The notes below the pieces were generated by a model, which was not told where the DNA came from, searched no databases, and was given only the letters and a program-made list of their open reading frames with translations. A stretch of DNA of 64,000 nucleotides. It comes from Escherichia phage EJP2. How positions within the stretch are numbered: position 1 is the first letter of the stretch; every line of letters begins with the position of its first letter. A program made the translations under genes and the position numbers. The stretch is taken from the sequence record OQ411014.1. One strand, given 5' to 3'. This document shows positions 16,655 to 63,790 of this stretch, one piece after another.

Positions 16655-16810
16655 TGTAATGTTATAATATAACATATATTGGCTTTTATTATGTAGTCCT
16701 GAGATCGGGGGATAGGGGTCAAAAAATTTTCCGCTCCGCAAAGTATATTAATAAGGTATAATACGCGGGGCGGCGGTGGCGGCGGCGAGATTGCGATTAG
16801 GGTGGATTTT

Positions 16811-17888: not shown

Positions 17889-18253
17889 CAGAGAATAGTT
17901 TTGATTTTTCATTGTTCGTATCAGTGTATGAAGAAATATATTGCAATCTCATCAAAGGTGATATTGAGCATAACAAGTCAACATTCATCAAGTACAAAAA
18001 ATCTACATCTACATCTGCATTTACATTTAGATTTGTAGATTACGATAATAATCAAAGAATGCAACCTATACAGGATTATACAGTACTGAATGAGGCTGAA
18101 AGATTTCAGGCAGCGTTGGTATATGAAGAAAAGTATCTCGTTACTATGGATGAAATGATTGCTATCCAACAAGAAATAAAAAATCACGTAAAAGAGTACG
18201 GTATGAGTTCAGTACTGGGTAAGAGATTACATTTCAATATAGATAAGGAATAA
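17885..18253 (+). CDS. FQ-motif paralog, 120-aa subfamily copy 4
   Basis: Motif EAERFQAALVY. Confidence 0.7.
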   Translation: MTENSFDFSLFVSVYEEIYCNLIKGDIEHNKSTFIKYKKSTSTSAFTFRFVDYDNNQRMQPIQDYTVLNEAERFQAALVYEEKYLVTMDEMIAIQQEIKNHVKEYGMSSVLGKRLHFNIDKE

Positions 18254-27065: not shown

Positions 27066-27094
27066 TTGACAAGCATTGTATCTTCGGGTACAAT
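27066..27094 (+). promoter_or_regulatory. sigma70-like promoter with palindromic spacer (operator-like)
   Basis: -35 TTGACA, 17 nt, -10 TACAAT; perfect inverted repeat AAGCATTGTA..TACAATGCTT. Confidence 0.55.
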
Positions 27095-27117
27095 GCTTTT
27101 TTTATAGGAGAAATACT

Positions 27118-27756
27118 ATGATTTCGTATGAGTTTTTTGTAGGTGTTTCGAAGATTACTACTGAACTTCTAAATGTATATCGATACATGTTCGATAATAA
27201 TGATACGTTATTGTTTCAGGATTTTGACGCTGAGGATCATGATTCAGGATTTGTATTGGAGTTCTATCCACGACGCATATGCTTCTCGGATATTGTTGAA
27301 AGTTATAATACCTTACTGTCTATAACTCCATCAGAAAGTGCCCACGCGATATACAAAGGAACTATGTCCGATGAAAGGTCCATAATTACAGTTTCTGATG
27401 CAAGGTCGTGTGATTTTATACATTTATCCCACTACAGTGCTCTTACAAAAATCAATAAGAATACGCCTATTCCTTCTTTCAGTACTCCAAGTACAGCAGA
27501 AGAATTTGAGCAGACAGCGTTTCAGTTGATGATGTTATACGAAGAAGATGTAGTTGATTTATTTTTACTGAACAGTTATGTTGGGCCATTACTTGAAGGT
27601 ACTTCTATGAAATTCTTCAGTGCTACTAAGTTGTACTACCTTAGTCCAGTGGACTTGAATAACATGCTAGTGTTACTCCAAGAGCAATTCAAGAAAATAC
27701 TCCAATATAAAGAGGCGAAGAATGATTACTTACGACAAGTGCAAAGCTATCAGTGA
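27118..27756 (+). CDS. FQ-motif paralog, MISYEKC subfamily copy 1
   Basis: Motif EQTAFQLMMLYEED; ATG 27118 preferred over TTG 27076 which lies in the promoter. Confidence 0.65.
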   Translation: MISYEFFVGVSKITTELLNVYRYMFDNNDTLLFQDFDAEDHDSGFVLEFYPRRICFSDIVESYNTLLSITPSESAHAIYKGTMSDERSIITVSDARSCDFIHLSHYSALTKINKNTPIPSFSTPSTAEEFEQTAFQLMMLYEEDVVDLFLLNSYVGPLLEGTSMKFFSATKLYYLSPVDLNNMLVLLQEQFKKILQYKEAKNDYLRQVQSYQ

Positions 27757-28330
27757 ATTGTTTACAGTACTACTGGATGTGAAGAAGTACTTATTACAAA
27801 ATAACATATACATACTTCGGTCTAAGTATGATATTGAACATAAAGATTTCAGGATTGAATTCTTTTCATCTGGAAACTGTGAACTATTTCGAACATACCC
27901 AGTGTATACTAGACTTTGTACTATTGGAATGTGCACATCACTGCGGAGTGTTTTTAAAGAACCCAAAGAAAAAGAAGGGTATTTGTGTACATTTTCCGAT
28001 CATAGTGTGTTTATGCACAAAGATGAATTCGTTACAAGAACAGGTTATGATAATGTTTTTCAACCTTTATGGGTAAATGATTGCAAACACAATCAAGATG
28101 AAGTAGAGAGTGCTTTGTTCCAGATCAGTACTGTGTACAATGAAGAAGATGCGGATTTAGTAATATTGTATAACTTCATTCGCAATGCATTAGAAGGTTC
28201 TCGTTTGCGTTTATCGTTTACAGATCTTTTACTTGAGTGTACGATTTGTGAGGTTCATGTGTTGACTGAACTAACTAAAAGTCGATTTCAGAAAATCCAA
28301 GAAGATTATCCAGTAGGTGAATGTAAATGA
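27722..28330 (+). CDS. FQ-motif paralog, MISYEKC subfamily copy 2
   Basis: N-terminus MITYDKCKAIS; motif ESALFQISTVYNEED. Confidence 0.65.
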   Translation: MITYDKCKAISELFTVLLDVKKYLLQNNIYILRSKYDIEHKDFRIEFFSSGNCELFRTYPVYTRLCTIGMCTSLRSVFKEPKEKEGYLCTFSDHSVFMHKDEFVTRTGYDNVFQPLWVNDCKHNQDEVESALFQISTVYNEEDADLVILYNFIRNALEGSRLRLSFTDLLLECTICEVHVLTELTKSRFQKIQEDYPVGECK

Positions 28331-28926
28331 TTTCATATGAAAAATGTCAAGCTATTTCGAATTTAGTAGTTGAACTTGTAGCTACTAAGGATGCAATAAT
28401 GAATCGTAAATTTACAACTTCTCGTTACAGAGCATCTTTTGAGATTTTCAATGATGATATTAGAATTGAATTTTCTATAGCGGGGAATTGCGATATATAT
28501 CAAACATCCCAATCAACAGATCGATTGTGTTCAATAATGTCAGATCAATGCATGTTTAGTTTGTTCGAGAGAGAGTCCGTGTTAGTAGGTTCGAATACTT
28601 ATCAATTTTATGATCATAAAAATGCAGTGCATGACTATTACTGTAAATCATTCTCACTCAATCACATCAAACATCCAATATGGATAGGTGAGTGCACTGC
28701 TGATAATTATGATAGTGTTGTTTTTCAATTGAGTACTGTGTATAATGAAGATATGGCTGGTCTTATGTTATTGAATAATTTCATTCGACCAATTCTTGAG
28801 GGTACTGGTTTTAAATTTACCGCACATAGTTTGTTATTGCAGTTACCTGTTGAAACCATCGAGTGTGCTACTTTGTTATTACAGAAACAACATCAAAAAA
28901 TCTCCAGACAAGGTGAATGTAAATGA
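28327..28926 (+). CDS. FQ-motif paralog, MISYEKC subfamily copy 3
   Basis: N-terminus MISYEKCQAIS; motif DSVVFQLSTVYNED; ATGA overlap. Confidence 0.7.
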   Translation: MISYEKCQAISNLVVELVATKDAIMNRKFTTSRYRASFEIFNDDIRIEFSIAGNCDIYQTSQSTDRLCSIMSDQCMFSLFERESVLVGSNTYQFYDHKNAVHDYYCKSFSLNHIKHPIWIGECTADNYDSVVFQLSTVYNEDMAGLMLLNNFIRPILEGTGFKFTAHSLLLQLPVETIECATLLLQKQHQKISRQGECK

Positions 28927-29528
28927 TTTCATATGAGAAATGTTTAGTACTGAAAGAGTTAGCAACTACACTAATTGAGACATACCATTACATAGCCAAT
29001 AACCCACGTATCTCAGTTGGAATACTGGACGGCGAATACGACACTATGCGTAATGGATACATGGCGGTATTTTATCCGAAAGGAAACTGTTATATATATG
29101 ACAGTACTGATATATATCAGAAACCACTAATGAGTGTTCGTAAATGGCAATTGGGTATGTACACTCTATGTAAGACATTACATGACGGTTACATTACGTG
29201 TAATTTCTCAGATAATTTACTCGCTGAAGTTGATAATTATTTTACAAACACTCACGGTGCAAAAGTTACACACAATTTACCATCGATTTTGAAGTACTGT
29301 AACGCTAGTGAAGACGCTTTCAATAGTACTGTTTTTCAATTGAGTACTCTTTACGACGATGAAGACATTGAAACACTTTTGATATACTCTTTCTTGCGAG
29401 ACATGTTAGAAGGTTCTGGTATGTCCATCACAATATCATCTACAACACTAGAAGATTCAGTAGAGAAAATTATTGATGGCCTTGAATTGTTGAAATGTCA
29501 ATTAGAAAAAATGAAAAAATCAATTTGA
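28923..29528 (+). CDS. FQ-motif paralog, MISYEKC subfamily copy 4
   Basis: N-terminus MISYEKCLVLK; motif NSTVFQLSTLYDDED. Confidence 0.7.
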   Translation: MISYEKCLVLKELATTLIETYHYIANNPRISVGILDGEYDTMRNGYMAVFYPKGNCYIYDSTDIYQKPLMSVRKWQLGMYTLCKTLHDGYITCNFSDNLLAEVDNYFTNTHGAKVTHNLPSILKYCNASEDAFNSTVFQLSTLYDDEDIETLLIYSFLRDMLEGSGMSITISSTTLEDSVEKIIDGLELLKCQLEKMKKSI

Positions 29529-40222: not shown

Positions 40223-40788
40223 ATGCCGCAGAGTTTGTTAGAGCACTTGTTGGTTTAGCTAAAGTGAAAACTTATAGAGGAAATATCACTAAATCAAATT
40301 CGCATTTTGTTCCACGTAATGGTCGTGAACATCTATTCGTTGATTCATTACTCATCAAGGGTATCGATGCATATGAAGAAATATACATTTCTATAGATAT
40401 GTGTGATGGATTCTTGAATTCCATTGCAGTTCATACAAGAAATAGATATACTCATTTCTCTATGTACAGAAAAACGGCATACACAGAGTATGATAAGTAC
40501 GCAATGGAAGAAACCTCCCCAGGGCGTTTCCTTATGCTTTTTCACAATGAAATTACCGAGCGTGATTTAATCATGAATCACAAGGGTGAATTTATTGTGC
40601 ACATGGACAATGAAAGTGAAGTGTTCAGTACTTTATTAGTACATAACTTCGATATAGAAAAGTACAGAGAAATTCATGAAACCTATAAGTGCATTGATGA
40701 ACTTAAAACTGACCTCTCATTCAGTACATATGATACTAATTGTGGTCTGAATTTCGCAGCACTATATCAAATTATATGGAAGGCATAA
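40219..40788 (+). CDS. FQ-motif paralog, VHDFD subfamily
   Basis: Motif ESEVFSTLLVHNFD; ATGA overlap. Confidence 0.65.
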   Translation: MNAAEFVRALVGLAKVKTYRGNITKSNSHFVPRNGREHLFVDSLLIKGIDAYEEIYISIDMCDGFLNSIAVHTRNRYTHFSMYRKTAYTEYDKYAMEETSPGRFLMLFHNEITERDLIMNHKGEFIVHMDNESEVFSTLLVHNFDIEKYREIHETYKCIDELKTDLSFSTYDTNCGLNFAALYQIIWKA

Positions 40789-41309
40789 TGACTGCACTAA
40801 ATGATTTCATGACTCTCAGTACTGAAATAGTATCTTCTACAAAGGGAGAAATCACAATCCCCCGTGATGATGTATATATTATACTAACACCAGGAATAGC
40901 AGAGTCCATAAAAGTATACGAAAATAATGATTCTTTACAAGTACTGTACATGCCACAAGATTATCTTTTTGTAAATTCTGATTTTACTTTACATCAATTT
41001 CCTACGTATAGTAATTTTCAACAACGTTTCCCAAGTGATAAAACAAAAGAAATAAAATACGTACAGTACGATAATAGTTTTAAAAGTCGTACTCATTTTA
41101 TCGCTTTAGAAACTGAAGAAGATATATTCAATGCTATGATAGTACATTCATTTGATATAAACGCAGCACTAGAATTGATGAGTGTATTGACTGAAGTACC
41201 GGAAGATGTAACAGGTATTATTACTATAAGAACTAAGTACAATGAAGAATTGTTACTAAAGTGCAACAGTATGATGCGAGATTATATTAGTAATAAGGAA
41301 AACACATGA
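40788..41309 (+). CDS. FQ-motif paralog, VHDFD subfamily
   Basis: Motif EEDIFNAMIVHSFD; ATG 40788 (TAATG overlap) preferred over TTG 40740. Confidence 0.6.
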   Translation: MTALNDFMTLSTEIVSSTKGEITIPRDDVYIILTPGIAESIKVYENNDSLQVLYMPQDYLFVNSDFTLHQFPTYSNFQQRFPSDKTKEIKYVQYDNSFKSRTHFIALETEEDIFNAMIVHSFDINAALELMSVLTEVPEDVTGIITIRTKYNEELLLKCNSMMRDYISNKENT

Positions 41310-41836
41310 CAGTACTGAATGATTTTCTTAGAGATAGTAAGTACATTATTGATAATATTGCTGAAGAAATATCTATACCATCAATGGATGAGTTGATGAT
41401 GATATCAATGGACCCTGATGGTGGGTTGGTAAAAGTATATTACGATTTTGAACTGCACGTAATGTTCATGAAAAATCATTATGAACACGCTTCTGATATG
41501 TTGACACTTTATGATTTTGGGACGCATAAAAATTACCAACAACGTTTACCAGCAAACAAATCAAAGGATATGAAACTAAGTGTTTACAATTCTGCTGGTG
41601 TTACTATTCCGACTAAGATTTCTCTTGGTTCTGAAGAGGGAATCTTTTCTGCGGAATTAGTACATGATTCCAGTACTGAAGAAGCACTTGAAGTTATGCA
41701 AGTAATTTCTGAAGTACCTGACAGTACCAAAGGAATACTTACTATAAGAAATAAGTACAACGAACGATTACTTATAAAATGTAATGTGTTATTAGAACAA
41801 TATATACATGGAGTACTGAATGCAAATATGGTATAA
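41306..41836 (+). CDS. FQ-motif paralog, VHDFD subfamily
   Basis: Motif EEGIFSAELVHDS; ATGA overlap. Confidence 0.65.
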   Translation: MTVLNDFLRDSKYIIDNIAEEISIPSMDELMMISMDPDGGLVKVYYDFELHVMFMKNHYEHASDMLTLYDFGTHKNYQQRLPANKSKDMKLSVYNSAGVTIPTKISLGSEEGIFSAELVHDSSTEEALEVMQVISEVPDSTKGILTIRNKYNERLLIKCNVLLEQYIHGVLNANMV

Positions 41837-43890: not shown

Positions 43891-44566
43891 TAATTCAATC
43901 AACATCAGTACTGAACTATTAAAAGTACTAAAAGTGATTTATAGTTTCAGTACTGAAGAGTTGTTGAAAGTACTACCAGAGAGTGTATCTAAACGAGAAA
44001 ACGAATATAAGTGCGTTTTTGATATACAACAAGATGTACAATTTCAAGTTCAAATTAACTACAAAGACGATTTGAATTATCGCAGTACTAATATTTCCAT
44101 TCTTGATGTGCGTCGCGGCGTAACAATGAATGGGACAATTCCATGTATCTTAGCTTTAGGTACATACGCAGCGAATAAATCAGAACCATCTATCATTTGT
44201 AACTACTCCCAAAGTAAAGAATTTATGGTTCGATATCATTCATTGACCGAAAATCCTGCTTATACAAATGTCAGTACTGATGGCAATTCACTTAGAATGA
44301 ATCGAATCAAGTACTACGAGATTGATGATATTTTTGATGAAGGTGCAGTATTCCAACATTCAATTATGCATGAGTTCGACCCTAATAGTATTCTGTTATT
44401 ACAGAAGATGGTCACTGTTGGGGATTACATCAGTACTAAATGTAATTCCAATAAAATCCTTGTCTCGGCTGATGAAGATAAGTTAGATGGTCTGTTGGAT
44501 TCACTTCTAAAGATTGATGTTGTTAGTAAATTCATTTCCTTATATGAAGGTACAGAATGGTCATAG
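43877..44566 (+). CDS. FQ-motif paralog family protein
   Basis: Motif DEGAVFQHSIMHEFD. Confidence 0.65.
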   Translation: MQTFDNSINISTELLKVLKVIYSFSTEELLKVLPESVSKRENEYKCVFDIQQDVQFQVQINYKDDLNYRSTNISILDVRRGVTMNGTIPCILALGTYAANKSEPSIICNYSQSKEFMVRYHSLTENPAYTNVSTDGNSLRMNRIKYYEIDDIFDEGAVFQHSIMHEFDPNSILLLQKMVTVGDYISTKCNSNKILVSADEDKLDGLLDSLLKIDVVSKFISLYEGTEWS

Positions 44567-45180
44567 CCAATAAAGGTTTAGAAATCATTGAAATTGCACC
44601 GGATGAAGTTCAAATGGAAGTTGAAGTAATGTATCCGTGCAACATTGAACAGTACTGCAAACAGGGATTACAGTACTTAGAAGAAATGCAAGTACTACTT
44701 GATTCTCCTGATTGTATCGATAATTATACCAAATACACAACTGTAACCAGAACTACACCAGAATTGGAATTGATTGGTATTCGATATTGCAACACACGTC
44801 TCCCATCAATTATTACTACAGTTAAATTTACTGAAGTAATGTTGCTGGAAACATTTAGATGGCCTAAAACGTTACAAAGTCATTTCAATTCAATACGTTT
44901 TGGTGAAGATGAATACATTATCATGTGTGAAGATCCTAAGTCCTACAAATATGTAGTGATGGTCGAGCAAGATGAAGTATGCACAATTGAAGATATCAGA
45001 GACGAAAGTTCTTTATTTCAGGCTTCATTAGTTTCTGAATTAGATCCGTGTATACAGGAGTATCTCATCAAACATCACGAACTGTACTTGCGTGCAATTA
45101 GTAATGAGAACAAAGAGATTACTACTCTATGTACTACTCTGGCAGGTGGTGATTACTACGCAGAGAGGCAGTACTTATGA
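44557..45180 (+). CDS. FQ-motif paralog family protein
   Basis: Motif DESSLFQASLVSELD. Confidence 0.65.
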   Translation: MVIANKGLEIIEIAPDEVQMEVEVMYPCNIEQYCKQGLQYLEEMQVLLDSPDCIDNYTKYTTVTRTTPELELIGIRYCNTRLPSIITTVKFTEVMLLETFRWPKTLQSHFNSIRFGEDEYIIMCEDPKSYKYVVMVEQDEVCTIEDIRDESSLFQASLVSELDPCIQEYLIKHHELYLRAISNENKEITTLCTTLAGGDYYAERQYL

Positions 45181-45716
45181 ATGCCTTAGAACATATTGTA
45201 AAATACTTCAGTACTGCACAACCTAATGGGTATGCGTTGTTTCATGCAATGTTTCATTATGAACGAGAACCACTAGCAATTGAGCGTTATTATCAAAACG
45301 AGAAAACGCACTTCTTGATTCATGTTCGGGTCGGTTCAAAGATTGAAACTCTAAAAATGTACTATAATCACAAAGAATATCCGAAGAAAATTATAATGAT
45401 TCAATCGTCACCTACAAATAGTTTTATACATTTGATGAGTAATTATAAGACACAATTTTTAGATGATGCCAATAGTAATGTGTGTATTATGGGCGTTGAG
45501 GGAAAGGAATATAACTTCAATGCATTTGATGAATGTGCATTATTCCAGGCCAGTACTGTATGTGATATTGATGTGGATTTCATTTCAAAATCTATGTTGA
45601 CATTACAGAATATTTCGGATAGTATTAGTAGTGTTGTTACCTTACAAGGAACCAAAGGTGTAATCGATGAACTTTGTAATCTCAGGATTGATTCGATTAT
45701 GCGATTAGCTTCATAG
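45177..45716 (+). CDS. FQ-motif paralog family protein
   Basis: Motif DECALFQASTVCDID; ATGA overlap. Confidence 0.65.
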   Translation: MNALEHIVKYFSTAQPNGYALFHAMFHYEREPLAIERYYQNEKTHFLIHVRVGSKIETLKMYYNHKEYPKKIIMIQSSPTNSFIHLMSNYKTQFLDDANSNVCIMGVEGKEYNFNAFDECALFQASTVCDIDVDFISKSMLTLQNISDSISSVVTLQGTKGVIDELCNLRIDSIMRLAS

Positions 45717-46515: not shown

Positions 46516-46545
46516 GCAGTACTGCGATTGTAGTACTGCTTTTTT
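46516..46545 (+). terminator. rho-independent terminator
   Basis: Stem GCAGTACT..AGTACTGC followed by TTTTTT; stem built from the AGTACT palindrome. Confidence 0.6.
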
Positions 46546-46556
46546 CTGGAGATGCT

Positions 46557-47111
46557 ATGAATAATCTTGAGTTCGTTAAACACTTGGCTAATAAAGTTGA
46601 TACAATCGCACAGAAACATATTGACACTCAAAGTTCAATACCTATAAAATTAGCGATTCCTCATGATAATATGGAACTGTTCGATAGATTCTTTTCTGTT
46701 CGAGGCCGCCACGATAAAGATAGATATCTTTTACTCGACACTGACCGGAATGCTTTTCAGTACTCAACACCTACGTTTCCTGGAATTTTCATGAAAGTGT
46801 CTGATGGATTGTACCTTACGTACTCACCACCAGATATATCACAGACTATGATTGGATTGGATTCTAGGGTATTACTATTTCAGCCACGCAATCCAAGTGA
46901 TGTATATGATCCGTATGAATTCTTGACTGAAGAAATGCACTTCCAGGCATCTACAGTACTGGATATTCCGAGCATAGAAACTCTAAGAGAAATGCTTGAT
47001 ATTGTTGAGTTTTTGATTGAAAGTGAATTCAAATTTAGATGTTCAATGGACTACGATGATTACCAGAGTATTCAGATTGGTCGTTTTTATAATTACGCAA
47101 TGCAGGAATAA
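46557..47111 (+). CDS. FQ-motif paralog family protein
   Basis: Motif TEEMHFQASTVLD; RBS GGAGATG. Confidence 0.65.
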   Translation: MNNLEFVKHLANKVDTIAQKHIDTQSSIPIKLAIPHDNMELFDRFFSVRGRHDKDRYLLLDTDRNAFQYSTPTFPGIFMKVSDGLYLTYSPPDISQTMIGLDSRVLLFQPRNPSDVYDPYEFLTEEMHFQASTVLDIPSIETLREMLDIVEFLIESEFKFRCSMDYDDYQSIQIGRFYNYAMQE

Positions 47112-47115: not shown

Positions 47116-47727
47116 ATGAAGAATCTAGATAAATTTGAAGACCTTATCAGTACTGCAAAAGCGTTCGGGTATTATAATTTCATCCAACGCTTTGGCCTCA
47201 AAGAAGAAAGTAACCGTTTCTGTAAAGTATATCGTGGTATCTGTACTGAAGATTCGGAGTATCAGTTCTTGATTGGAACTATGCGTTCTAGTGGTGGGAT
47301 TACATACATCGTTGAAGATAATAAAACAGGTGAGTACTTGAACATGTTCGCTCTTCGGGCAGAAGGTGAATCTGAACTTACTGCGATGTTTAAAGACTGG
47401 ACACGACTATCATACAAATACGATAAGTTCAACATCTACAACTACGAAACCAAGAAGATGGAAGTTGTACCGAACATTGACATGTCTGAAGATGAACATT
47501 TTCAGTTCATGCTATTGCATGATATTCCAGATTATGATACAGTACAGTCAGTACTGAAATATCATAAAGAAGTTTCACCAATGCTCAAAGAACATAAGCT
47601 ATTCAATATCATCACGTACACGATGCCTGATTTTGATTTCACAAAGATGAAAATCAAACCTGAAGTAATTGACACGTGTATGGATTTGATACCTGAATCA
47701 TCTTTATACAAACACAAGGATATATAA
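47116..47727 (+). CDS. FQ-motif paralog family protein
   Basis: Motif SEDEHFQFMLLHD; ATG 47116 with RBS AGGAAT preferred over listed 47017. Confidence 0.6.
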   Translation: MKNLDKFEDLISTAKAFGYYNFIQRFGLKEESNRFCKVYRGICTEDSEYQFLIGTMRSSGGITYIVEDNKTGEYLNMFALRAEGESELTAMFKDWTRLSYKYDKFNIYNYETKKMEVVPNIDMSEDEHFQFMLLHDIPDYDTVQSVLKYHKEVSPMLKEHKLFNIITYTMPDFDFTKMKIKPEVIDTCMDLIPESSLYKHKDI

Positions 47728-48866
47728 TGACTACAATGCGTGAACTATATGACGATTTGAATGCATTAGTATCTGATGCTTTCTATCACAAAGATTTCGT
47801 TAGTAAAGGCTCTGGTACGTACCGGATTTTCTCGTACCGTCTAGCGAGTGCTGCTGACTTCGAAGAACGTAATGCCCTTGAGTCACGTGGTATTATGTTC
47901 GAGATTGATGCAGATACTAAAGAGCCAATTCGTATTGCTTCTCGGACTATGAAGAAGTTTTTCAATGCAGGGGAAACCCAAGAATTACAGTTCAAGAAGG
48001 ACGTACCATTCAGTACTATCAAGTGCGTAATGCCTAAGTTGGATGGTTCTGTTATTGCAACCTTCATGGACAATGATGGAATTATTCGTACTAAATCAAA
48101 CTCTTCGTTGGAGTCTGAGCACGCGTATTACAGTACTGAAATGATTCACGCCAATGATAAGTTACACGATGCAATCATTTGTGCTGAAGCTGCTGGTTAT
48201 ACTGTAATTATGGAATTTACTTCACCTGAGTACCGGATTATTCTTCCTTACCAGAAAGATGAACTAACTGTATTGCGTATCATTCATCGTGAAAGTGGTG
48301 AAAGCATTATGGGTTCTGACTTGAAGGAGAAGTTCCCAGTACTGTATGAGTTTTCGGTATTTGGTGATAAAGACATTCATGAATCATTCCCTGTTCGCAG
48401 TACTTTAGTACAGAGTATTGCTGCTGTTCGTGAAATGGAAGAGATTGAGGGATATGTTGTAGTACTACAAGATGGCACTACATTCAAGCTCAAGACGGAT
48501 TGGTATTGCAATTTACATTTTACCAAAGATAGTATTATCATTGATTCTCGACTATTCAAGGCAGTACTGGATGGTAGTTCAGATGATTTACGTCAATTGT
48601 TTGAAAATGATGAATATGCACTAAAAAAAGTCGAAAAAATGGAAAATTTGATTTTTTTGTGCTATAATAAGTTAGAAGAGGATGTGACTACTTTTTACGA
48701 AAAGTACAAGCACCTTGATCAAAAAACGTATGCTATGAAGGTGTTGGGTGAATTATCGAAAGATATGAACCGACAAGGACTTGCATTCAACTTGTACAAT
48801 GGTAAACCTGTTGATTACAAAGAAGTACTACTAAAGTACATGAAGAACGTGTTAGAAGGATTCTGA
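47727..48866 (+). CDS. rnlA: RNA ligase 1 (T4 RnlA-like)
   Basis: Nucleotidyltransferase motif I KxDG in MPKLDGS; N-terminal YRIFSY, RGIMFE, RIASRTMKKFFN recalled as matching T4 Rnl1; 379 aa. Confidence 0.85.
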   Translation: MTTMRELYDDLNALVSDAFYHKDFVSKGSGTYRIFSYRLASAADFEERNALESRGIMFEIDADTKEPIRIASRTMKKFFNAGETQELQFKKDVPFSTIKCVMPKLDGSVIATFMDNDGIIRTKSNSSLESEHAYYSTEMIHANDKLHDAIICAEAAGYTVIMEFTSPEYRIILPYQKDELTVLRIIHRESGESIMGSDLKEKFPVLYEFSVFGDKDIHESFPVRSTLVQSIAAVREMEEIEGYVVVLQDGTTFKLKTDWYCNLHFTKDSIIIDSRLFKAVLDGSSDDLRQLFENDEYALKKVEKMENLIFLCYNKLEEDVTTFYEKYKHLDQKTYAMKVLGELSKDMNRQGLAFNLYNGKPVDYKEVLLKYMKNVLEGF

Positions 48867-48895
48867 CATAGTAATAGCTGAACAGGGAGTAGTTC

Positions 48896-49135
48896 ATGGC
48901 TAACAAACCGAAGTACCAATTGAAGAAGGGTGAAGTACGTACACCGGAAGAGCAGAGAAGGATTTTAGAAGAAATCGATTCTTTACAGCATGAACGCTCC
49001 CGCAAAGGAGTTAAGAAAAGTGCTAAGAGGATTGCAAACACATTTGGAGTCTCAAGTACTGCATATAAAAAGGAACGTAAGCCCAAAAAGAAAAGAGACA
49101 GAATATACGATATAGGAAGATATGCTCGTGAATGA
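48896..49135 (+). CDS. hypothetical basic protein (79 aa)
   Basis: ORF track; RBS CAGGGAG; Lys/Arg-rich. Confidence 0.6.
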   Translation: MANKPKYQLKKGEVRTPEEQRRILEEIDSLQHERSRKGVKKSAKRIANTFGVSSTAYKKERKPKKKRDRIYDIGRYARE

Positions 49136-49343
49136 TACAGTTATTCTTGAAACAGTAATGTATAAAGATAAAACTTATTATGCGGTGACTAACATATCCA
49201 GTGCTCAACGCACTAAGTACGTTCAACAACTAAAGGCAGTAGGTGATACTGTCTTTGTTATTGACAATTTGTTATTCATTGATGAAATGGGTTTATTCAA
49301 TATTAGTTTATTCGACACAGAAACAGCATTTTCAATTCGCTAA
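49122..49343 (+). CDS. hypothetical protein (73 aa)
   Basis: ORF track. Confidence 0.5.
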   Translation: MLVNDTVILETVMYKDKTYYAVTNISSAQRTKYVQQLKAVGDTVFVIDNLLFIDEMGLFNISLFDTETAFSIR

Positions 49344-49360
49344 CAACTAGGAGATATATC

Positions 49361-49582
49361 ATGAAAGTTCAAATTATGCATAGTGTTGTCCAGGACATGT
49401 CTGTGGTGAAGTTTAGTACTCTAAGTGATTATTTCCGTTGTATCGAATTTATGGATACTAACGGTATACTGTGGGAACCAGTGAAGTACAGTTCCAGAAA
49501 CGATACCGCTAGTATTCGCGTTGATGAGGTAGCGTTGAATAAAATTTGTAAACGATATGGAGTTCAGAAATGCCTAAACTAG
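49361..49582 (+). CDS. hypothetical protein (73 aa)
   Basis: ORF track; RBS AGGAGAT. Confidence 0.6.
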   Translation: MKVQIMHSVVQDMSVVKFSTLSDYFRCIEFMDTNGILWEPVKYSSRNDTASIRVDEVALNKICKRYGVQKCLN

Positions 49583-50499
49583 TACTGACAGTTGGATTGC
49601 CTGGGTGCGGGAAAAGTACTTGGGCTACAGAAGAAGTAAAGAAATCCAAACGCAAAACTGTCATTCTAAATCGTGATGATATTCGTGAAACGATGTTCGG
49701 TGGTAACTGGGAATATCGTTATAGTAACGAGAACGAAAAATACGTCCAGAATACTCTCGCTTTTCAAGCCCAAGAAGCAGTGAAAAATGGCTGGGATATT
49801 ATCGTTGCAAATACTAATCTCAACCCAAAAGAACAAAACATGTGGAGTACTTTTGCAAAGGAGAATTCATATACCTTAGTACATCAGGACTTCTTCAAGG
49901 AGTTCAAGAAAGGTAAATCCTTTGTGCATGATTACTTCGCAATCAATGCTTTCGTGAAACATTGTAAAGAACGTAACCTAAAACGTTTGAAGTCTGTTCA
50001 AGAAAGTGTAATTGACCAAATGGCAACTTCGTACTATTACAGTACTGTTACGCCTCCACCAGTGATTGAAGGTGATGGTCTAAAATATTACATCGTAGAT
50101 ATTGACGGAACTCTAGCACATATGTTAGATTATCGTTCACCCTATGATGAAACAAAAGTTCATCTTGATGTACCTGATGAGTTCGTAATTTCAGTACTGC
50201 ACGCTCTTGTAAAAGACCCGTCAGTACGTATTATCCTCATGAGTGGTCGTCACGTCACCTGTAAAGAGCTAACACAAGAATGGTTAGCGAAGCATTCAGT
50301 ACCGTATCATGAGCTTCATATGCGTGCTGCGGACGATGTACGAGGGGACGATGTGGTGAAATATGAGTTGTATATGCAAGAAGTATACAACAAAAACAAA
50401 CGAGTCCAAGTTGTGTTCGATGACCGTCAAAAAGTTGTGAACACATGGCGTGAGTTGCTTGGCCTCAAAACCTTCCAGGTACAGCCTGGAAATTTCTAG
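49570..50499 (+). CDS. pseT: polynucleotide 5'-kinase/3'-phosphatase (T4 Pnk-like)
   Basis: Walker A GLPGCGKST at N-terminus; HAD phosphatase motif DIDGT; length and C-terminus like T4 Pnk. Confidence 0.9.
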   Translation: MPKLVLTVGLPGCGKSTWATEEVKKSKRKTVILNRDDIRETMFGGNWEYRYSNENEKYVQNTLAFQAQEAVKNGWDIIVANTNLNPKEQNMWSTFAKENSYTLVHQDFFKEFKKGKSFVHDYFAINAFVKHCKERNLKRLKSVQESVIDQMATSYYYSTVTPPPVIEGDGLKYYIVDIDGTLAHMLDYRSPYDETKVHLDVPDEFVISVLHALVKDPSVRIILMSGRHVTCKELTQEWLAKHSVPYHELHMRAADDVRGDDVVKYELYMQEVYNKNKRVQVVFDDRQKVVNTWRELLGLKTFQVQPGNF

Positions 50500-50508
50500 G
50501 AGTGATAT

Positions 50509-50895
50509 ATGCTCGTAATTCGAATCGGCAACGAAGAACGTGAAATCCGACTTGTGGAAACAATTGATAGTACTCAATATTTCGTACTCAAGAATGAAGT
50601 TAGTTCTGTTTCTCTAGTTGAAGCAGTTGACGACCTTTGCATTTCTCTGTATAGTGGTGGTATTGACACACTTGAAGAAGCAATCTGGATTGAAGCTGCA
50701 TACCTATCAGAAACATATGGCGTGTGGACATTTGATGAAGTTGATACAACTAAAGAAGCTACACGCTTGACGGAGTTCATGAACGATCTGATTGATGGTG
50801 TAGAGGAAGATGATCCTTTATATCAGCACGCACATTATACGGTTCAAGAAATCCAAGAAATAATCTCAACAAATCTAAAATATAAGGAAGAATAA
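50509..50895 (+). CDS. hypothetical acidic protein (128 aa)
   Basis: ORF track; RBS AGGAGTG. Confidence 0.65.
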   Translation: MLVIRIGNEEREIRLVETIDSTQYFVLKNEVSSVSLVEAVDDLCISLYSGGIDTLEEAIWIEAAYLSETYGVWTFDEVDTTKEATRLTEFMNDLIDGVEEDDPLYQHAHYTVQEIQEIISTNLKYKEE

Positions 50896-50896
50896 T

Positions 50897-51253
50897 ATGA
50901 GCATTACAGTACTATTTGGTCTAGACAACGTTGACATTTTCGATGCAGTTGCAAAAGCACAAGACGTTGATGTTGCTGGGATGGTGGTTTCTTATGGTAA
51001 CGTCCAAGGTGAAACTATCGAGATTTATGGTGAACAAACAGTACTGAAAGTTGCTAGATTAGCAGAATTCAACGGTACTGCATTGACTGTCTATACTGAC
51101 GGTACTAAAGAGTTCATCGATGTTGCTAAGTTCATTCCTGTGTGTGAGCCTGTTGCAGCAGATAAGATTGGTGAACTAGTATTTGATCAAACTGAACTAC
51201 CATTTGCTGTAGCATTAGTTCGTGGTGTTCATCGTTTAGTTCACGTAATCTAA
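50897..51253 (+). CDS. hypothetical protein (118 aa)
   Basis: ORF track; RBS AAGGAAG. Confidence 0.65.
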   Translation: MSITVLFGLDNVDIFDAVAKAQDVDVAGMVVSYGNVQGETIEIYGEQTVLKVARLAEFNGTALTVYTDGTKEFIDVAKFIPVCEPVAADKIGELVFDQTELPFAVALVRGVHRLVHVI

Positions 51254-51263
51254 TTTCAAATAC

Positions 51264-51293
51264 AGTACTGCTATTGTGGCAGTACTTTTTTTG
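51264..51293 (+). terminator. rho-independent terminator
   Basis: Stem AGTACTGC..GCAGTACT followed by T7 tract. Confidence 0.65.
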
Positions 51294-52300: not shown

Positions 52301-52729
52301 ATGAAGCTATATTGCTTAGTGAACGTAAAATGTTGTGCAATACAAGCAGGTATTCAGGCATTACACAGTACTGCAAGAATGATGCACAAGTATCACATGA
52401 ATGGTCAAGCATGGGCTAATCTTATGATTGACACTTGGATGACTCACAACGAAACTGTAGTACTCTTACAGGGTGGTGTGCACAAAACTCTACGTGATAA
52501 AGTCAATCTCCTAAATGGACAAGAAGTTATGCCATTTGATTTCTTCACTGAAGAAGATATCAATGATGCATATACTAGTATCTCCATCCTTTGCAGTACT
52601 GAAATGGTTGAGGATATGAAACGTCTTCGTGAAGAAGAAGTTACTAAAGAAGACTTAGCACAAAAATACAGTTCGTGGTCTGCTGCTGAGATTTTGGAAT
52701 TTATGGCATTTGCGAGGACAATCTCCTAA
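52301..52729 (+). CDS. hypothetical protein (142 aa)
   Basis: ORF track; RBS GAGGAAT. Confidence 0.65.
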   Translation: MKLYCLVNVKCCAIQAGIQALHSTARMMHKYHMNGQAWANLMIDTWMTHNETVVLLQGGVHKTLRDKVNLLNGQEVMPFDFFTEEDINDAYTSISILCSTEMVEDMKRLREEEVTKEDLAQKYSSWSAAEILEFMAFARTIS

Positions 52730-53965: not shown

Positions 53966-55381
53966 ATGAGCGTACTTTCTATTTTGACTGAACTAAAAGA
54001 CAATGCATCTATTCTGGTCAAAAAAGACATTCTCAATAAAAACAAGGACGATGCAGTACTGCAACGTGTTCTCAAACTAGCTTTAGACCCAGGAATTGTA
54101 AGTGGTTATAAGAAGCTACCGAATCCCTTCGTTAGTGAAACTAAGTACACACTCAACGAAGCACTAAATCAGCTTGATGATATCTACACTCGTAAGTACA
54201 CTGGTCATGCTGGACGTGACCACATTGCACAAATCCTAGGTTCAGTCACTGAAGATGACCGTGAAGTTATCCGTCGAGTACTGACTAAGGACTTAGAGTG
54301 TGGTGCTAGTGATAAGATTGTGAACGATGTATTTGGTAAAGGTTTTGTCAAAGATGAACCGTATATGCGTTGTTCATTGATTGATCATAAAACTGCAAAA
54401 AACATCAACTTCGATGGTTATGGTTATGCTGTCTCTGAAGTAAAAATGGACGGCACTTACCTGAACCACGTAGTCATCAACAATGCACTAACATCCTCAT
54501 CCAGAAATGGTAAACTATATGATTTTCTTGGTTGTCGTGACTTAGAAATGAGTGGGGTTGCTGGAATCATTCAGAAAAATGATCCACGTTTCAGTTCTGG
54601 TGTAGTTTTCATGGGAGAAGGTTTAGTACTAGACACTGATGGCACTATTCTTCCACGAACAACTGGTAATGGGATCATCCAAAAAGCGGGTAAAGATTCC
54701 ATAACATCGTTCGAAGCTATGCGGGTAGTCTTTGTATTATGGGACGTTGTTCCATATGATGCATTCTGTAATGGTTTTTGGGATGTGAAACGCAAAGAGC
54801 GTCGTGAAATACTTGAAAGTGCAATCAACGAATTCGATAGTGAATTTGTACGTATGGTTGAGTACCGTAAAGTAAAAAATCTAAAAGAAGCATTTGATTA
54901 TAACACTGAACTCATGAACAAGGGTGAAGAAGGTTCAGTACTGAAATGTGAAGATGGTGTTTGGAAATCACACACTTCTCCTAAGCAATTGAAAATGAAA
55001 CTGAAAATGCAAATTGATTTACGCATTGTAGGATTCAATGAAGGGGATAAGAAACGTAAAGGCTGTTTGGGTTCTTTACAACTTGAAAGTGATTGTGGTA
55101 CATTGAAAGTGAATGTAGGTACTGGTATCAAAGAGAAAGATGCCGAATGGACATTCAAAAGTATCTGGGAAAAACGTTTTGAACTATTGAATAAGATTGT
55201 CACTGTTGAGGCAAATGAAATCGTAGTTGATAAACGTACTGGAGAACCATCACTATTTTTGCCAGTGTTTGTTGAATTTAGATTTGACAAGGACACATGT
55301 GACACGTATACTCGTATCTTAGAAATTCGAGAAAGTGCTGTTGAGGTATTTGCAAACAGTATTGTTAGTTCTTTATTGTAA
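53966..55381 (+). CDS. ATP-dependent DNA ligase (T4 gp30-like)
   Basis: Adenylation motif KxDG in SEVKMDGTY; LTKDLECGAS and C-terminal LKVNVGTGIKEKD / LFLPVFVEFRFDKD recalled as matching T4 DNA ligase; 471 aa. Confidence 0.9.
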   Translation: MSVLSILTELKDNASILVKKDILNKNKDDAVLQRVLKLALDPGIVSGYKKLPNPFVSETKYTLNEALNQLDDIYTRKYTGHAGRDHIAQILGSVTEDDREVIRRVLTKDLECGASDKIVNDVFGKGFVKDEPYMRCSLIDHKTAKNINFDGYGYAVSEVKMDGTYLNHVVINNALTSSSRNGKLYDFLGCRDLEMSGVAGIIQKNDPRFSSGVVFMGEGLVLDTDGTILPRTTGNGIIQKAGKDSITSFEAMRVVFVLWDVVPYDAFCNGFWDVKRKERREILESAINEFDSEFVRMVEYRKVKNLKEAFDYNTELMNKGEEGSVLKCEDGVWKSHTSPKQLKMKLKMQIDLRIVGFNEGDKKRKGCLGSLQLESDCGTLKVNVGTGIKEKDAEWTFKSIWEKRFELLNKIVTVEANEIVVDKRTGEPSLFLPVFVEFRFDKDTCDTYTRILEIRESAVEVFANSIVSSLL

Positions 55382-55941: not shown

Positions 55942-56634
55942 ATGTTTCATAACTCTATCAAAGCCAATGCATACGAAGAACCAACCAACATGACTATTCC
56001 AATCGTTGTTGAACAGACTCATAATGGTGAGCGTTCTTATGATTTACCATCTCGTTTGATGAACTCTCGTATCATCATGGTTGATACTGATTTCAACGAC
56101 CAGATGGCATATGTAATCAAAATGCAGTTGCTGTGGCTTGATAGTCAAAGTGCAGACCCAATCACTATGTACATCAACTCCCCTGGTGGTTCAGTACATG
56201 CTGGTTTAGGTATTGCTGATGTAGTTGCGAACCTTCGCTCTCCAGTACGCACTATCGTTATGGGTATGGCTGCATCGATGGGTTGTTACATGCAAAGTAC
56301 TATGGGTACTCCTGGTCTGCGTCTAGCAGGTAAACGTGCACAAATCATGGCACACCAAGTATCTTCTGGTACACAAGGTCTGATTCTAGACCAAGAGATT
56401 TCTCTGAATCATAGTAAGCGTTTGAACAAACTCTTGACTGAAGAGATTGCTGAAGCAGTAGGTATGCCGATTGAACAATTCCTTATTGACTGTAACCGCG
56501 ATTTGTGGTTAAATGCTGAAGAAGCATTGAACTACGGCACTAAAGGTTTCATCGATGGTATCTATCTGGGTAAACAAAACGAACAAGGCCAACTACTTGT
56601 CCAACGTCGTGGTGGTGTTGAGGAATGGGTGTAA
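55942..56634 (+). CDS. clpP: ClpP-like serine protease
   Basis: ClpP signatures INSPGGSVHAGLGI and active-site Ser context GMAASMG; His in MAHQ. Confidence 0.8.
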   Translation: MFHNSIKANAYEEPTNMTIPIVVEQTHNGERSYDLPSRLMNSRIIMVDTDFNDQMAYVIKMQLLWLDSQSADPITMYINSPGGSVHAGLGIADVVANLRSPVRTIVMGMAASMGCYMQSTMGTPGLRLAGKRAQIMAHQVSSGTQGLILDQEISLNHSKRLNKLLTEEIAEAVGMPIEQFLIDCNRDLWLNAEEALNYGTKGFIDGIYLGKQNEQGQLLVQRRGGVEEWV

Positions 56635-57420: not shown

Positions 57421-58212
57421 ATGAAATTTATGATTATGTCCGACACACACGGTTCCAACGATTTCATTCCAGAGGGTGATTACAGCGATGTAGTACTGAT
57501 TATTCCTGGTGACTTCGATGAAGCTAAACGACCACGTTTCCGTACTAAGATTGAATCTCTGTGTAAGCAGTTTAAGGAAGTAGTACTGGTTCCTGGCAAT
57601 CATGAGTACTACGGTTCTAATATTCACAAAGTACATAAGATTTTGAAAGAAATGAATTTTGAGATTCCCAATTTCTCATTCCTGCAAAACGACTACATTT
57701 ACATTGGTGATGTATTGATTGTCGGTGCTACACTGTGGACTGATTACGACAGAAGTAATGCCCTAGTGAAGTTCGATGCAAAGATGAAGATGAATGATTA
57801 CAAACACATTCGTCATGGTACTGAAGCTGAACCGTGGAAGACTAAACTCACAGTAGAAGATGTAGAGTACATGCATCACATTTCGAAGAAATATATCAAG
57901 ATGCTGATTGACACAGAGCGTGAACTCGTACATAATGATATCAAGGTTGTGGTAGTAACACATCACGCACCAAGTTATCAGAGTGTTTCTCCACGTTACA
58001 AGAATGATTCACTGAATGGTTGTTACTGTTCTGATATGGATCAGTACGTAGCTGATACAAAAGCGGACTTCTGGATTCATGGACACGTACATGATAACTT
58101 CGATTATTATATCGATAAGACTCGTGTTCTGTGCAACCCAAGAGGCTATGCGTCATCTATTGGAGTTCATGAAAATAAAAACTTCAATGCAAACTATATT
58201 TTTGAGGTATAA
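57421..58212 (+). CDS. calcineurin-like metallophosphoesterase
   Basis: Motifs MIMSDTHGS, PGDFDE, GNHEYY, HHAP and GHVH typical of the metallophosphatase fold. Confidence 0.75.
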   Translation: MKFMIMSDTHGSNDFIPEGDYSDVVLIIPGDFDEAKRPRFRTKIESLCKQFKEVVLVPGNHEYYGSNIHKVHKILKEMNFEIPNFSFLQNDYIYIGDVLIVGATLWTDYDRSNALVKFDAKMKMNDYKHIRHGTEAEPWKTKLTVEDVEYMHHISKKYIKMLIDTERELVHNDIKVVVVTHHAPSYQSVSPRYKNDSLNGCYCSDMDQYVADTKADFWIHGHVHDNFDYYIDKTRVLCNPRGYASSIGVHENKNFNANYIFEV

Positions 58213-59310: not shown

Positions 59311-59819
59311 AACTAAAAGAACTCGACGTTGCCAGTACTCTAATTTGGATTTCAAATTTAGATAAGGTAGCTAAGGTATATAACTTAGCACTTGCTTATC
59401 ATAAAGAAATCACAGATAAAGCTGAACGTGAATTCGAAGAACATTATAGTAGTAAGTGGTTTTATCGTACCTTCACCAATGCGAATGATTATAAGAACGC
59501 ATGGTATGAAGATGATGGTAAGCACTATACTTTTGGGTGGATATTGGGTATCTTTGAATTGAGCAAGATGACAGTACTACCAGATGAGTTTCCAGAGTTA
59601 GCTAATCAATTGGCTGCTGATTGGGCTACTGGTTATCCAACTAAGTTGGAGCGTACAATCACTGCTTGGTCTAAATATGCAAAGCGACCCTTTGAAATTA
59701 CTACAGAAGATTTGACTTTGTATTTTGAATTCAAAGCGTGGCACTCTCTACTAAAAGAACTAACTACAGCTTTGGGGATTTATGATGAAGCACTCGACTT
59801 GGATGAAGATTGCATGTGA
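59307..59819 (+). CDS. hypothetical protein (170 aa)
   Basis: ORF track; ATGA overlap. Confidence 0.6.
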   Translation: MKLKELDVASTLIWISNLDKVAKVYNLALAYHKEITDKAEREFEEHYSSKWFYRTFTNANDYKNAWYEDDGKHYTFGWILGIFELSKMTVLPDEFPELANQLAADWATGYPTKLERTITAWSKYAKRPFEITTEDLTLYFEFKAWHSLLKELTTALGIYDEALDLDEDCM

Positions 59820-60258
59820 CGTAGCAGATGAGAGTAAGTGTATCTCTCATCACGTTGGTGCAGTTATAGTAAACAATGACAGGATTGTCAGTACTGGATA
59901 CAATGGCACACCACCTAAGCAGCCTAATTGCTGTGATGTGAATGCTCATCTGGTACACGACAAGACCTTACAACAATGGGTATCTGATGATGCTAAGGTA
60001 GAGCATCATCACTGGAGTCAATTACATGAGATTCATGCTGAGATGAATGCGTTATTGTATTCTTCTCCGAAGGATCGTATTGGGGCAACTCTTTACAGTA
60101 CTCTACAGCCGTGCTATACTTGCTCTTTATTGATTGCTGCTAGTGGTATCACTAAAGTGATTTATGAGAAGGGATATCCACGAACTCCACCTGAAGCTAC
60201 TTCAGTACTGGAACAGGCGGGTATTGAAATTATCAAGTTTTCTGACTTAGGGGAATAA
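59782..60258 (+). CDS. cd: dCMP deaminase (T4 Cd-like)
   Basis: Zinc-binding HAEMNA and PCYTCS motifs; N-terminus MKHSTWMKIA..ESKC recalled as matching T4 Cd; start 59782/59785/59803 uncertain. Confidence 0.85.
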   Translation: MMKHSTWMKIACDVADESKCISHHVGAVIVNNDRIVSTGYNGTPPKQPNCCDVNAHLVHDKTLQQWVSDDAKVEHHHWSQLHEIHAEMNALLYSSPKDRIGATLYSTLQPCYTCSLLIAASGITKVIYEKGYPRTPPEATSVLEQAGIEIIKFSDLGE

Positions 60259-62716: not shown

Positions 62717-63790
62717 ATGAAAAACGAAAACGTATATGTATACATCGGACGCTTCCAGCCAGCACATAAAGGCCACGAAGCAGTACTTGAAAATGCAATC
62801 AAAAAAGCTGACCGTGTTGTTATTCTAGTGGGTAGTGCTGAACAAGCTCGTTCCCCTAAGAACCCGTTCACCTTTGAAGAACGCCAAAAAGTACTGGACG
62901 GTATCACAACTCGTCTTGCACAAGATGAATGGGCGAAAGGTCGCCGTGTGATGATCGACATCCTACCTGTACATGACTTCGTATACAACAACCAGAAATG
63001 GCTCATGGAAGTTCAAGAACAAGTTCGTTCCTGCACTAAAAGTGAAAACATTACTCTAACTGGTTGTCGTAAACATGGCGATGATAGTACTTTCTATCTT
63101 GAGTTCTTCCCTCAGTGGAATCAAGATTTCATTACAGAAACTACACAAGAAGATGTTGGTATCAATGCCACTCAACTACGTAACCAATTCTTCAGTACTA
63201 AACAAGTACCTGAACAAAATGTACTTACTCCTGAAACTGTAGAGTTCCTTGAGAAGTTCAGCGTAGAAAAGAAAGATGTACTAGATTACCTAGTGAAAGA
63301 ACATGCTTTTACTACAAAATATAAAGCAGACATGAAGAAACAACTACCATTTGACACAATCCCATTCCTGACTGGTGATAGTCTGATTGTCTGTGCAGGT
63401 CATGTTCTTGTAGGTATTCGTCGCTCTGAACCAGGCAAAGGTCAGTACTGTCTACCTGGTGGGTTCTTCGATGCATGGAAAGATAAAGATCAAGTTGATA
63501 CTGCTTTACGTGAACTCAAAGAAGAAACCAAAATTGATGTACCAATGAATAAACTACGCGGTTCTATTGAACGTGTAGAAGAGTTTGGTGACTTTGACCG
63601 TGACCCACGCTGGCGTGTAATCACTAAGTGCATCTACATCAAACTTGACGGTACTAAACTACCTAAAGTAAAAGGCTCAGATGATCTCAAAGGTTGCTTC
63701 TGGATGCCTATGACTGAAATTGCTAAAAATCGTGCTAACTTCTTTGTTGATCACGTTTCCATCATTGACACGTTCTTAGGAATCCTGTAA
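62717..63790 (+). CDS. natV: bifunctional NMN adenylyltransferase / Nudix hydrolase (NadM-Nudix type)
   Basis: N-terminal HxGH motif in IGRFQPAHKGHEAV; C-terminal Nudix-box-like GGFFDAW..ALRELKEETKI; 357 aa; symbol by analogy with vibriophage KVP40 NatV. Confidence 0.8.
   Translation: MKNENVYVYIGRFQPAHKGHEAVLENAIKKADRVVILVGSAEQARSPKNPFTFEERQKVLDGITTRLAQDEWAKGRRVMIDILPVHDFVYNNQKWLMEVQEQVRSCTKSENITLTGCRKHGDDSTFYLEFFPQWNQDFITETTQEDVGINATQLRNQFFSTKQVPEQNVLTPETVEFLEKFSVEKKDVLDYLVKEHAFTTKYKADMKKQLPFDTIPFLTGDSLIVCAGHVLVGIRRSEPGKGQYCLPGGFFDAWKDKDQVDTALRELKEETKIDVPMNKLRGSIERVEEFGDFDRDPRWRVITKCIYIKLDGTKLPKVKGSDDLKGCFWMPMTEIAKNRANFFVDHVSIIDTFLGIL

Follow-up and report, generated by a model that had tools for sequence, protein, structure and literature searches.

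An RNA ligase and polynucleotide kinase/phosphatase cassette of the jumbo coliphage EJP2 as a probable T4-type RNA repair module

When a phage genome holds a gene for an RNA ligase close to a gene for a polynucleotide kinase/phosphatase, two questions arise: whether the two enzymes together repair RNA broken during infection, and whether their presence says anything about the hosts on which the phage grows. Escherichia phage EJP2, a RaK2-like jumbo coliphage with a genome of 349,185 bp, raises both. The stretch analysed here, referred to as the window, comprises the first 64 kb (64,000 nucleotides) of its sequence record OQ411014.1. In it the gene rnlA (EJP02_095) is followed on the same strand by pnk (also named pseT, EJP02_099), with three small open reading frames (ORFs) in between, called here sORF1, sORF2 and sORF3. 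An earlier, sequence-only reading of the window had named the two enzymes as RNA ligase 1 and polynucleotide kinase/phosphatase, placed their genes about 700 bp apart with three small ORFs between them, and taken the pair to imply that the host range of the phage includes strains with defences targeting transfer RNA (tRNA). The identities are borne out by matches to Pfam, PHROG, TIGR02308 and the sequences of the T4 structures, and the ORF list of the window gives a gap of 703 nt holding three small ORFs. We consider it rather likely that the pair is a T4-type RNA healing-and-sealing module, with tRNA broken by host anticodon nucleases as its likely substrate.

The genes themselves are already known, being annotated in the EJP2 genome as well as in its relatives. 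In the published EJP2 gene table (PMC10213699, supplement), whose coordinates agree with the ORFs of the window from EJP02_095 to EJP02_099 and whose EJP02_098 is 100% identical to sORF3, EJP02_095 is labelled 'RNA ligase', EJP02_096–098 'hypothetical' and EJP02_099 '3'-phosphatase, 5'-polynucleotide kinase'. The main text of the same paper refers to the RNA ligase solely as a gene 'for its own transcription', and tRNA repair is absent from its discussion (PMC10213699).

The two enzymes and their transcription unit

The 379-aa product of EJP02_095 is matched by the Pfam families RNA_lig_T4_1 (E=1e-18; 68 bits against a cut-off of 28.3) and, at residues 267-366, T4_Rnl1_C (E=1.5e-17), by PHROG 562 (E=1e-97), and over residues 6-367 by the NCBIfam equivalog TIGR02308, 'T4 RnlA family RNA ligase' (282 bits against a cut-off of 242.25). 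With the sequence of the T4 Rnl1 crystal structure 2c5u it aligns end to end (residues 4-376, E=6e-58). On these matches, EJP02_095 is a full-length RNA ligase of the T4 RnlA family. RnlA was aligned with T4 and five members of the RaK2-like jumbo clade, and then with 80 loci from viral contigs, 17 of them from the jumbo clade and 63 from outside it. The AMP-accepting lysine, K99 in T4, corresponds to K104 within motif I (104-KLDG-107), whose K, D and G are invariant across the six aligned phages; in the 80 further loci, K and D hold throughout and G in 79. Residues R54, K77, F79, K104, D106 and G107 stand for T4 R54, K75, F77, K99, D101 and G102, and E163, E241, G242, K254 and K256 for T4 E159, E227, G228, K240 and K242, motifs III, IV and V and, with R54, K77 and F79, the N-terminal subdomain included. 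Of the 12 positions of T4 Rnl1 reportedly found essential by Wang et al. in 2003, eleven are identical in EJP2, the exception being T4 K119.

For two of the conserved positions, R54 and K75 of T4 Rnl1, essentiality is documented in PMC6379707, where the C-terminal domain of T4 Rnl1 is also described as conferring specificity for the anticodon loop. This domain is present in EJP2 RnlA (the T4_Rnl1_C match), and by analogy with T4 it may confer the same specificity there. In the nucleotidyltransferase domain there is, in turn, an insertion of about 20 residues that is specific to the clade (approximately residues 201-220 of the EJP2 protein). The exact EJP2 RnlA protein was found in 33 blocks of public assemblies.

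Likewise, the 309-aa product of EJP02_099 is matched by Pfam AAA_33 (residues 4-155, E=1.6e-19) and HAD_PNKP (residues 173-309, E=7e-41), by PHROG 505, polynucleotide kinase (E=2e-91), and by T4 Pnkp 1ltq, on whose residues 1-301 its residues 1-309 align (E=3e-30). By the same kind of evidence, it is a full-length T4-type polynucleotide kinase/phosphatase, composed of a P-loop 5'-kinase (residues 1-155) and a DxDGT acylphosphatase (residues 173-309), the latter a predicted 2',3'-cyclic phosphodiesterase and 3'-phosphatase. The residues essential for the T4 kinase are Lys15, Ser16, Asp35, Arg38, Asp85 and Arg126 (PMC2831316), while the T4 phosphatase site comprises the nucleophile Asp165, the acid-base Asp167, Ser211, Lys258 and Asp278 (PMC3592404). 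Pnk was aligned with T4 and five clade members, and subsequently with 150 diverse representatives. Five of the six kinase residues are identical, K15, S16, D36, R39 and R139 standing for T4 K15, S16, D35, R38 and R126, and E56 is aligned to T4 E57. The phosphatase residues examined are identical throughout: D177, D179, R189, S225, R227, D260, K264, D284 and D285 correspond to T4 D165, D167, R176, S211, R213, D254, K258, D277 and D278, and the columns of D177, D179, R189, S225, R227, D260, K264 and D285 are conserved at 93-100% among the 150 homologues. In the six-sequence alignment Pnk had appeared to be without Arg126, which was an artefact in an indel-rich region; the alignment of 152 sequences puts R139 at this position, and the column holds Arg in 146 of the 150 homologues.

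The layout of the locus is compact. All five cassette ORFs lie on one strand, with spacers of at most 29 nt and with overlaps of 1 nt (start of rnlA with the preceding stop), 14 nt (sORF1 with sORF2) and 13 nt (sORF3 with pnk). Two hairpins resembling intrinsic terminators, which share a AGTACTGC...GCAGTACT-type stem, enclose nine same-strand ORFs including the cassette and are the likely boundaries of its transcription unit (Table 1), and a consensus scan found no terminator-like site from 47826 to 51264. Within such a unit, sORF1 and sORF3 are probably co-expressed with both enzymes. The sequence CAGTACTTTTTT, which represents the 3' half of the hairpin together with the T run, occurs ten times in the window when one mismatch is allowed, compared with 0.73 copies expected, and its recurrence suggests a repeated terminator or regulatory motif.

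Table 1. Features of the rnlA–pnk cassette, its likely boundaries and the downstream neighbourhood in the window
Feature	Position	Strand	Description
Intrinsic-terminator-like hairpin, then T run	46516..46539	+	Consensus match; likely upstream boundary of the cassette transcription unit
rnlA (EJP02_095)	47727..48866	+	379 aa; T4 Rnl1-family ATP-dependent RNA ligase; adenylyltransferase and T4_Rnl1_C domains
sORF1 (EJP02_096)	48896..49135	+	79 aa; very basic; specific to the RaK2-like jumbo clade
sORF2 (EJP02_097)	49122..49343	+	73 aa; acidic; weakly conserved
sORF3 (EJP02_098)	49361..49582	+	73 aa; predicted alpha/beta sandwich; clade-specific
pnk / pseT (EJP02_099)	49570..50499	+	309 aa; bifunctional kinase and phosphatase
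Intrinsic-terminator-like hairpin, then T run, similar AGTACTGC stem	51264..51286	+	Consensus match; likely downstream boundary
ATP-dependent DNA ligase	53966-55381		
ClpP-like protease	55942-56634		
Calcineurin-like (NinI-type) phosphoesterase	57421-58212		
dCMP deaminase	59803-60258		
Fused NMN-adenylyltransferase-like / NUDIX protein	62717-63790		

The T4 precedent, the relatives and the hosts

The T4 precedent to which the sequence-only reading appealed is as that reading described it: after the anticodon nuclease PrrC has cut tRNA-Lys, Pnkp heals the ends and Rnl1 seals them (PMC11494293, PMC3592404, PMC6379707), and what T4 Pnkp does in vivo is to repair RNA (PMC3592404). Catalogues of E. 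coli defence systems include PrrC (PMC10121019); a figure for its prevalence in this species was not found in the literature. In T4 the genes run rnlA, alc, pseT.3, pseT.2, pseT.1, pseT, and the order and strand of the enzyme pair are those seen in EJP2. Both enzymes are full-length with the same domain architecture in the two phages, the Rnl1 C-terminal domain included, at amino acid identities of 37% for RnlA and 35% for Pnk. The DNA ligase and dCMP deaminase genes downstream of the EJP2 cassette also recall the T4 neighbourhood (rnlA, pseT, cd, gene 30). On the other hand, the genes of the interval are unrelated, alc and pseT.3/.2/.1 in T4 being replaced by sORF1–3 in EJP2.

In regard to the mechanism, RnlA would be adenylylated on Lys104, transfer the AMP to the 5'-phosphate of the broken RNA and seal the break. 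The most likely natural substrate would be a tRNA whose anticodon loop a host anticodon nuclease has broken in the course of infection, and its repair would allow phage translation to continue. Enzymatic activity, the tRNA substrate and the counter-defence role of the pair are what we infer. The same healing-and-sealing logic is found in Trl1, the tRNA ligase of fungi and plants, which is likened to the EJP2 pair here by description only. Its adenylyltransferase is homologous to Rnl1 and has a motif Ia lysine (PMC6379707). Unlike the EJP2 pair, Trl1 is a single trifunctional polypeptide (ligase, kinase and cyclic phosphodiesterase), needs a 2'-phosphate end, uses GTP for its kinase reaction and has a different C-domain.

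The cassette is not peculiar to EJP2. Each of the 17 jumbo-clade loci has pnk on the strand of rnlA and 690-1188 nt downstream of it, and the order of the cassette is constant in every RaK2-like jumbo phage examined. Among these, Hallingskeid, Pectobacterium CBB, Cronobacter GAP32, Serratia BF, Salmonella Munch, Escherichia 121Q/PBECO4 and Klebsiella RaK2 resemble EJP2 in having sORF1 and sORF3 between enzymes that are annotated alike in GenBank. EJP2 forms a lineage distinct from them; its closest GenBank phage is Erwinia phage Hallingskeid, with amino acid identities of 60% for RnlA and 58% for Pnk. Both enzymes are under purifying selection, with nonsynonymous divergence (pN) of 0.27-0.29 against saturated synonymous divergence (pS) of about 0.75. 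Among the 63 RnlA loci outside the jumbo clade, pnk is found downstream on the same strand in 41, upstream in one, and not within 6 kb in 21, at least three of which (L046, L050 and L060) end within about 550 nt of rnlA, where a pnk could not show. In Erwinia phage Kaldavass (L013, 4081-4746), a homing endonuclease gene on the opposite strand directly follows pnk and overlaps its 3' end; this gene is absent from the other relatives.

Given this distribution, the conclusion about the host range is not supported in the form in which it was put. The phages bearing the cassette come from at least nine host genera, namely Escherichia, Salmonella, Klebsiella, Erwinia, Pectobacterium, Serratia, Yersinia, Cronobacter and Xanthomonas. 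Since the cassette is present in the whole clade across these genera and has the gene order of T4, it represents an inherited core module and no marker of the hosts of EJP2; it comes from the common ancestor of the clade. Because the module is ancestral to the clade and its gene order is common with T4, it would serve as a general insurance and not as the signature of particular EJP2 hosts.

The same universality suits a housekeeping role as well as a defence role, whatever the host genus, and it thereby brings in an alternative, according to which the pair performs general RNA repair or processing, acting on RNAs cut by phage or toxin-antitoxin endoribonucleases or in the maturation of the phage's own tRNAs. 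Related to this, EJP2 has, elsewhere in its genome beyond the window, six tRNAs and a tRNA nucleotidyltransferase (EJP02_191, 103892-105001), which show an investment in the maintenance of tRNA in general and could act together with the repair pair. However, the sole experimentally established role of such a pair is the repair of anticodon-nuclease damage in T4, the T4-type C-terminal domain tied to anticodon-loop specificity has been kept, and the window showed no tRNA genes that are split or contain introns. We therefore regard upkeep of RNA in general, as opposed to repair after a host defence, as quite an improbable explanation of the pair.

Substitutions in the enzymes and the weight of the T4 analogy

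Several points weigh against reading the pair as a tRNA repair system that works like that of T4. The first is the position of T4 K119 in motif Ia (118-SK-119), where EJP2 RnlA has N125 (codon 48099-48101). K119A in T4 Rnl1 reportedly abolishes ligation, with a block at the RNA-adenylylation step (step 2) only. The second is the position of T4 Asp85 in the kinase, where EJP2 Pnk has N81 (AAT, codon 49810-49812); the D85A mutant of T4 Pnkp is kinase-dead, apparently for structural reasons. Furthermore, no tRNA genes are present in the 64-kb window, and the functional role proposed for the EJP2 pair, and for the clade, is carried over by analogy with T4. Finally, T4 Rnl1 (gp63) also acts, in a non-enzymatic way, in the attachment of tail fibres, and by the same analogy a gp63-like role could alone explain the retention of rnlA.

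In the kinase, N81 is confined to the EJP2 lineage, that is to the window and four near-identical public contigs (L007-L010), and Asp occupies the position in T4 and in all eight other clade members checked. Among the 150 diverse homologues the column holds D in 120, N in 16, A in 8, S in 3 and E in 3. That N81 signifies a dead kinase was considered and rejected, as Asn is natural in these 16 homologues and the remaining catalytic columns of the 150 sequences show nearly full conservation; because the column is naturally variable, N81 gives no evidence of inactivation. One of the four contigs, L008 (4844-5698, Logan contig of SRR10386367), has a 1-nt insertion at about nt 823 of pnk, which yields a protein of 284 aa. 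This truncation removes the Mg-binding DD motif (T4 D277/D278) and reflects an error of assembly or, alternatively, a naturally occurring phosphatase-null variant.

The substitution in the ligase is of wider extent. All 63 loci outside the jumbo clade have K in the motif Ia column, while the 17 jumbo-clade loci have H (11) or Q (6), and N is found in EJP2 and Hallingskeid. As far as could be found, this clade-wide substitution is undescribed. The basic side chain in motif Ia engages the RNA 5'-phosphate of the adenylylated-RNA intermediate (PMC6379707). Two residues before N125, K123 (T4 K117) is invariant and may, from its position in the alignment, compensate for the lost lysine. Homology of RnlA to the family is secure, whereas its biochemical equivalence to T4 Rnl1 at the RNA-adenylylation step is uncertain because the motif Ia lysine is replaced.

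These considerations also bear on the possibility that the two enzymes have separate roles unrelated to defence, with RnlA serving in tail-fibre attachment, Pnk in DNA or nucleotide metabolism, and their proximity being inherited synteny. PHROG 562 and the GenBank labels of relatives indeed read 'RNA ligase and tail fiber protein attachment catalyst', genes of DNA and nucleotide metabolism lie nearby (DNA ligase and dCMP deaminase, mirroring the T4 region), a third of the loci outside the jumbo clade (21/63) are without pnk within 6 kb, and the motif Ia lysine has been lost in the clade. Nevertheless, all remaining catalytic residues of the ligase, among them the AMP-accepting lysine and those of motifs IV and V, are invariant in the clade, and since a purely structural role would not need such invariance, it is disfavoured for RnlA. 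The linkage of rnlA and pnk in 17/17 clade loci, within a narrow range of gaps, and the in vivo role of T4 Pnkp in RNA repair (PMC3592404) point in the same direction. Separate roles are thus unlikely in our estimation, and a T4-type module for healing and sealing RNA stays the preferred explanation of the pair.

The small proteins of the interval and the surrounding genome

The small proteins between the enzymes are, as the sequence-only reading had also stated, uncharacterised: no significant sequence-profile match for sORF1 or sORF3 was obtained in Pfam, NCBIfam or the PDB, and their PHROGs are families of 'unknown function' only. Homology of sORF1–3 to the genes of the T4 interval (alc, pseT.1, pseT.2, pseT.3, cd.3-5) was sought with BLASTP, hidden Markov models (HMMs) and HHalign, using family alignments from 41 T4-like loci, and rejected, with all HHalign probabilities below 3%. 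sORF1 has an isoelectric point of 10.4, with 25 K+R in 79 aa, and its predicted fold (pLDDT model confidence 73.5) consists of a long helix followed by a helix-turn-helix-like pair. For sORF3 a beta-beta-alpha-beta-beta-alpha sandwich is predicted, and the protein has a conserved YSSxxDTASIR motif. HMMs of sORF1 and sORF3 match each of the 17 loci of the jumbo clade but not one of the 63 RnlA loci outside it, and homologues of the two proteins were not detected elsewhere; the numbers of phage records matched are 61 for sORF1, 70 for sORF3 and nine for sORF2. The last of these, which belongs to PHROG 26893, shows 18-47% amino acid identity to most relatives and is absent from 121Q and RaK2, where other small ORFs follow sORF3. 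As fixed orphan proteins, sORF1 and sORF3 are undescribed as far as could be found.

This distribution invites the idea of an altered mechanism, in which a ligase devoid of the motif Ia lysine relies on sORF1 and/or sORF3 for substrate recruitment or for the RNA-adenylylation step. One and the same clade is marked by the loss of the lysine and by the gain of sORF1 and sORF3 (17/17 versus 0/63); sORF1 is a very basic protein, conserved beyond either enzyme, and sORF3 overlaps the start codon of pnk. However, both traits stem from one branch, so that their co-occurrence counts as a single event and gives no statistical association. In addition, neither fold nor sequence connects sORF1 or sORF3 with RNA-binding or ligase partners, sORF1 of the RaK2 lineage is shortened and is without the putative recognition helix, and the invariant K123 may do the compensating instead. 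Such dependence is therefore very unlikely, in our view. A related and broader proposal holds that RaK2-like jumbo phages possess a distinct variant of the T4 pathway, with a ligase in which the motif Ia lysine is replaced, and with sORF1, under unusually strong constraint, and sORF3, translationally coupled to pnk, as accessory subunits that recruit or present broken RNA or regulate the enzymes; we find this unlikely, and retain a module on the T4 pattern as the preferred reading of the locus.

sORF1 is the most conserved gene of the cassette, with 92% amino acid identity to Hallingskeid, where the enzymes reach about 60%. Within the subclade of EJP2, Hallingskeid, CBB, BF and Kaldavass, synonymous divergence in sORF1 falls repeatedly below that of the neighbouring genes: 0.42 versus about 0.75 between EJP2 and Hallingskeid, 0.19 versus about 0.6 between CBB and Kaldavass, and 0.29 versus 0.5-0.6 between CBB and BF. 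The sole megablast match of the locus in GenBank phages is to Hallingskeid, over 415 nt around sORF1 (48766-49180). Two explanations of this constraint were rejected. A structured RNA is opposed by RNAalifold, where an alignment of eight relatives with 516 columns yielded -12 kcal/mol and the covariation term was positive and thus penalising, by a single-sequence z-score of just -2.3, and by Rfam, which had no match in the window. As for a conserved overlapping ORF in another frame, the antisense ORF of 99 aa is open throughout in EJP2 alone; stops break it in CBB, Kaldavass, XbC2 and further phages. Codon bias associated with high expression or local gene conversion are possible causes.

Practical value lies in phage therapy, as EJP2 has been proposed as a broad-host-range biocontrol agent. 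If active, the repair module would be one reason for the failure of tRNA-cleaving abortive-infection systems against this phage. In itself the pair adds little, since the T4 repair paradigm is textbook knowledge and the genes were annotated already; novelty could come only from the replacement of the motif Ia lysine and from the two orphan proteins fixed between the enzymes. Should these prove meaningful, they would provide a natural Rnl1 variant with another route to RNA adenylylation, and possibly new accessory factors for a pathway thought to need two proteins only. What is new here, namely the distribution of sORF1 and sORF3, the loss of the motif Ia lysine and the low synonymous divergence of sORF1, amounts to a modest lead.

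In regard to the surroundings of the cassette, the genes with recognizable products downstream of it are listed in Table 1. The ORF at 52301-52729, labelled 'hydrolase' by PHROG, was considered as a peptidyl-tRNA-hydrolase-like factor, and this assignment was unsupported by Pfam, NCBIfam and the PDB. The first 47 kb of the window consist mostly of same-strand small ORFs without assigned function. By all-against-all BLASTP (E<1e-4), paralogous ORFs of about 120-230 aa are arrayed in tandem at 9373-13349 (seven ORFs), 16802-18253 (four) and 27076-29528 (four), with further arrays of two ORFs each at 13346-14535 and 40740-41836. Directly upstream of rnlA, the ORFs at 44557-45180, 45177-45716, 46557-47111 and 47116-47727 have a common motif near the C-terminal third, which reads LFQAS, LFQAS, HFQAS and HFQF, respectively, followed by hydrophobic-x-D-I/L. 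The shared motif suggests that these four ORFs, which BLASTP does not link, are members of a divergent paralogue family.

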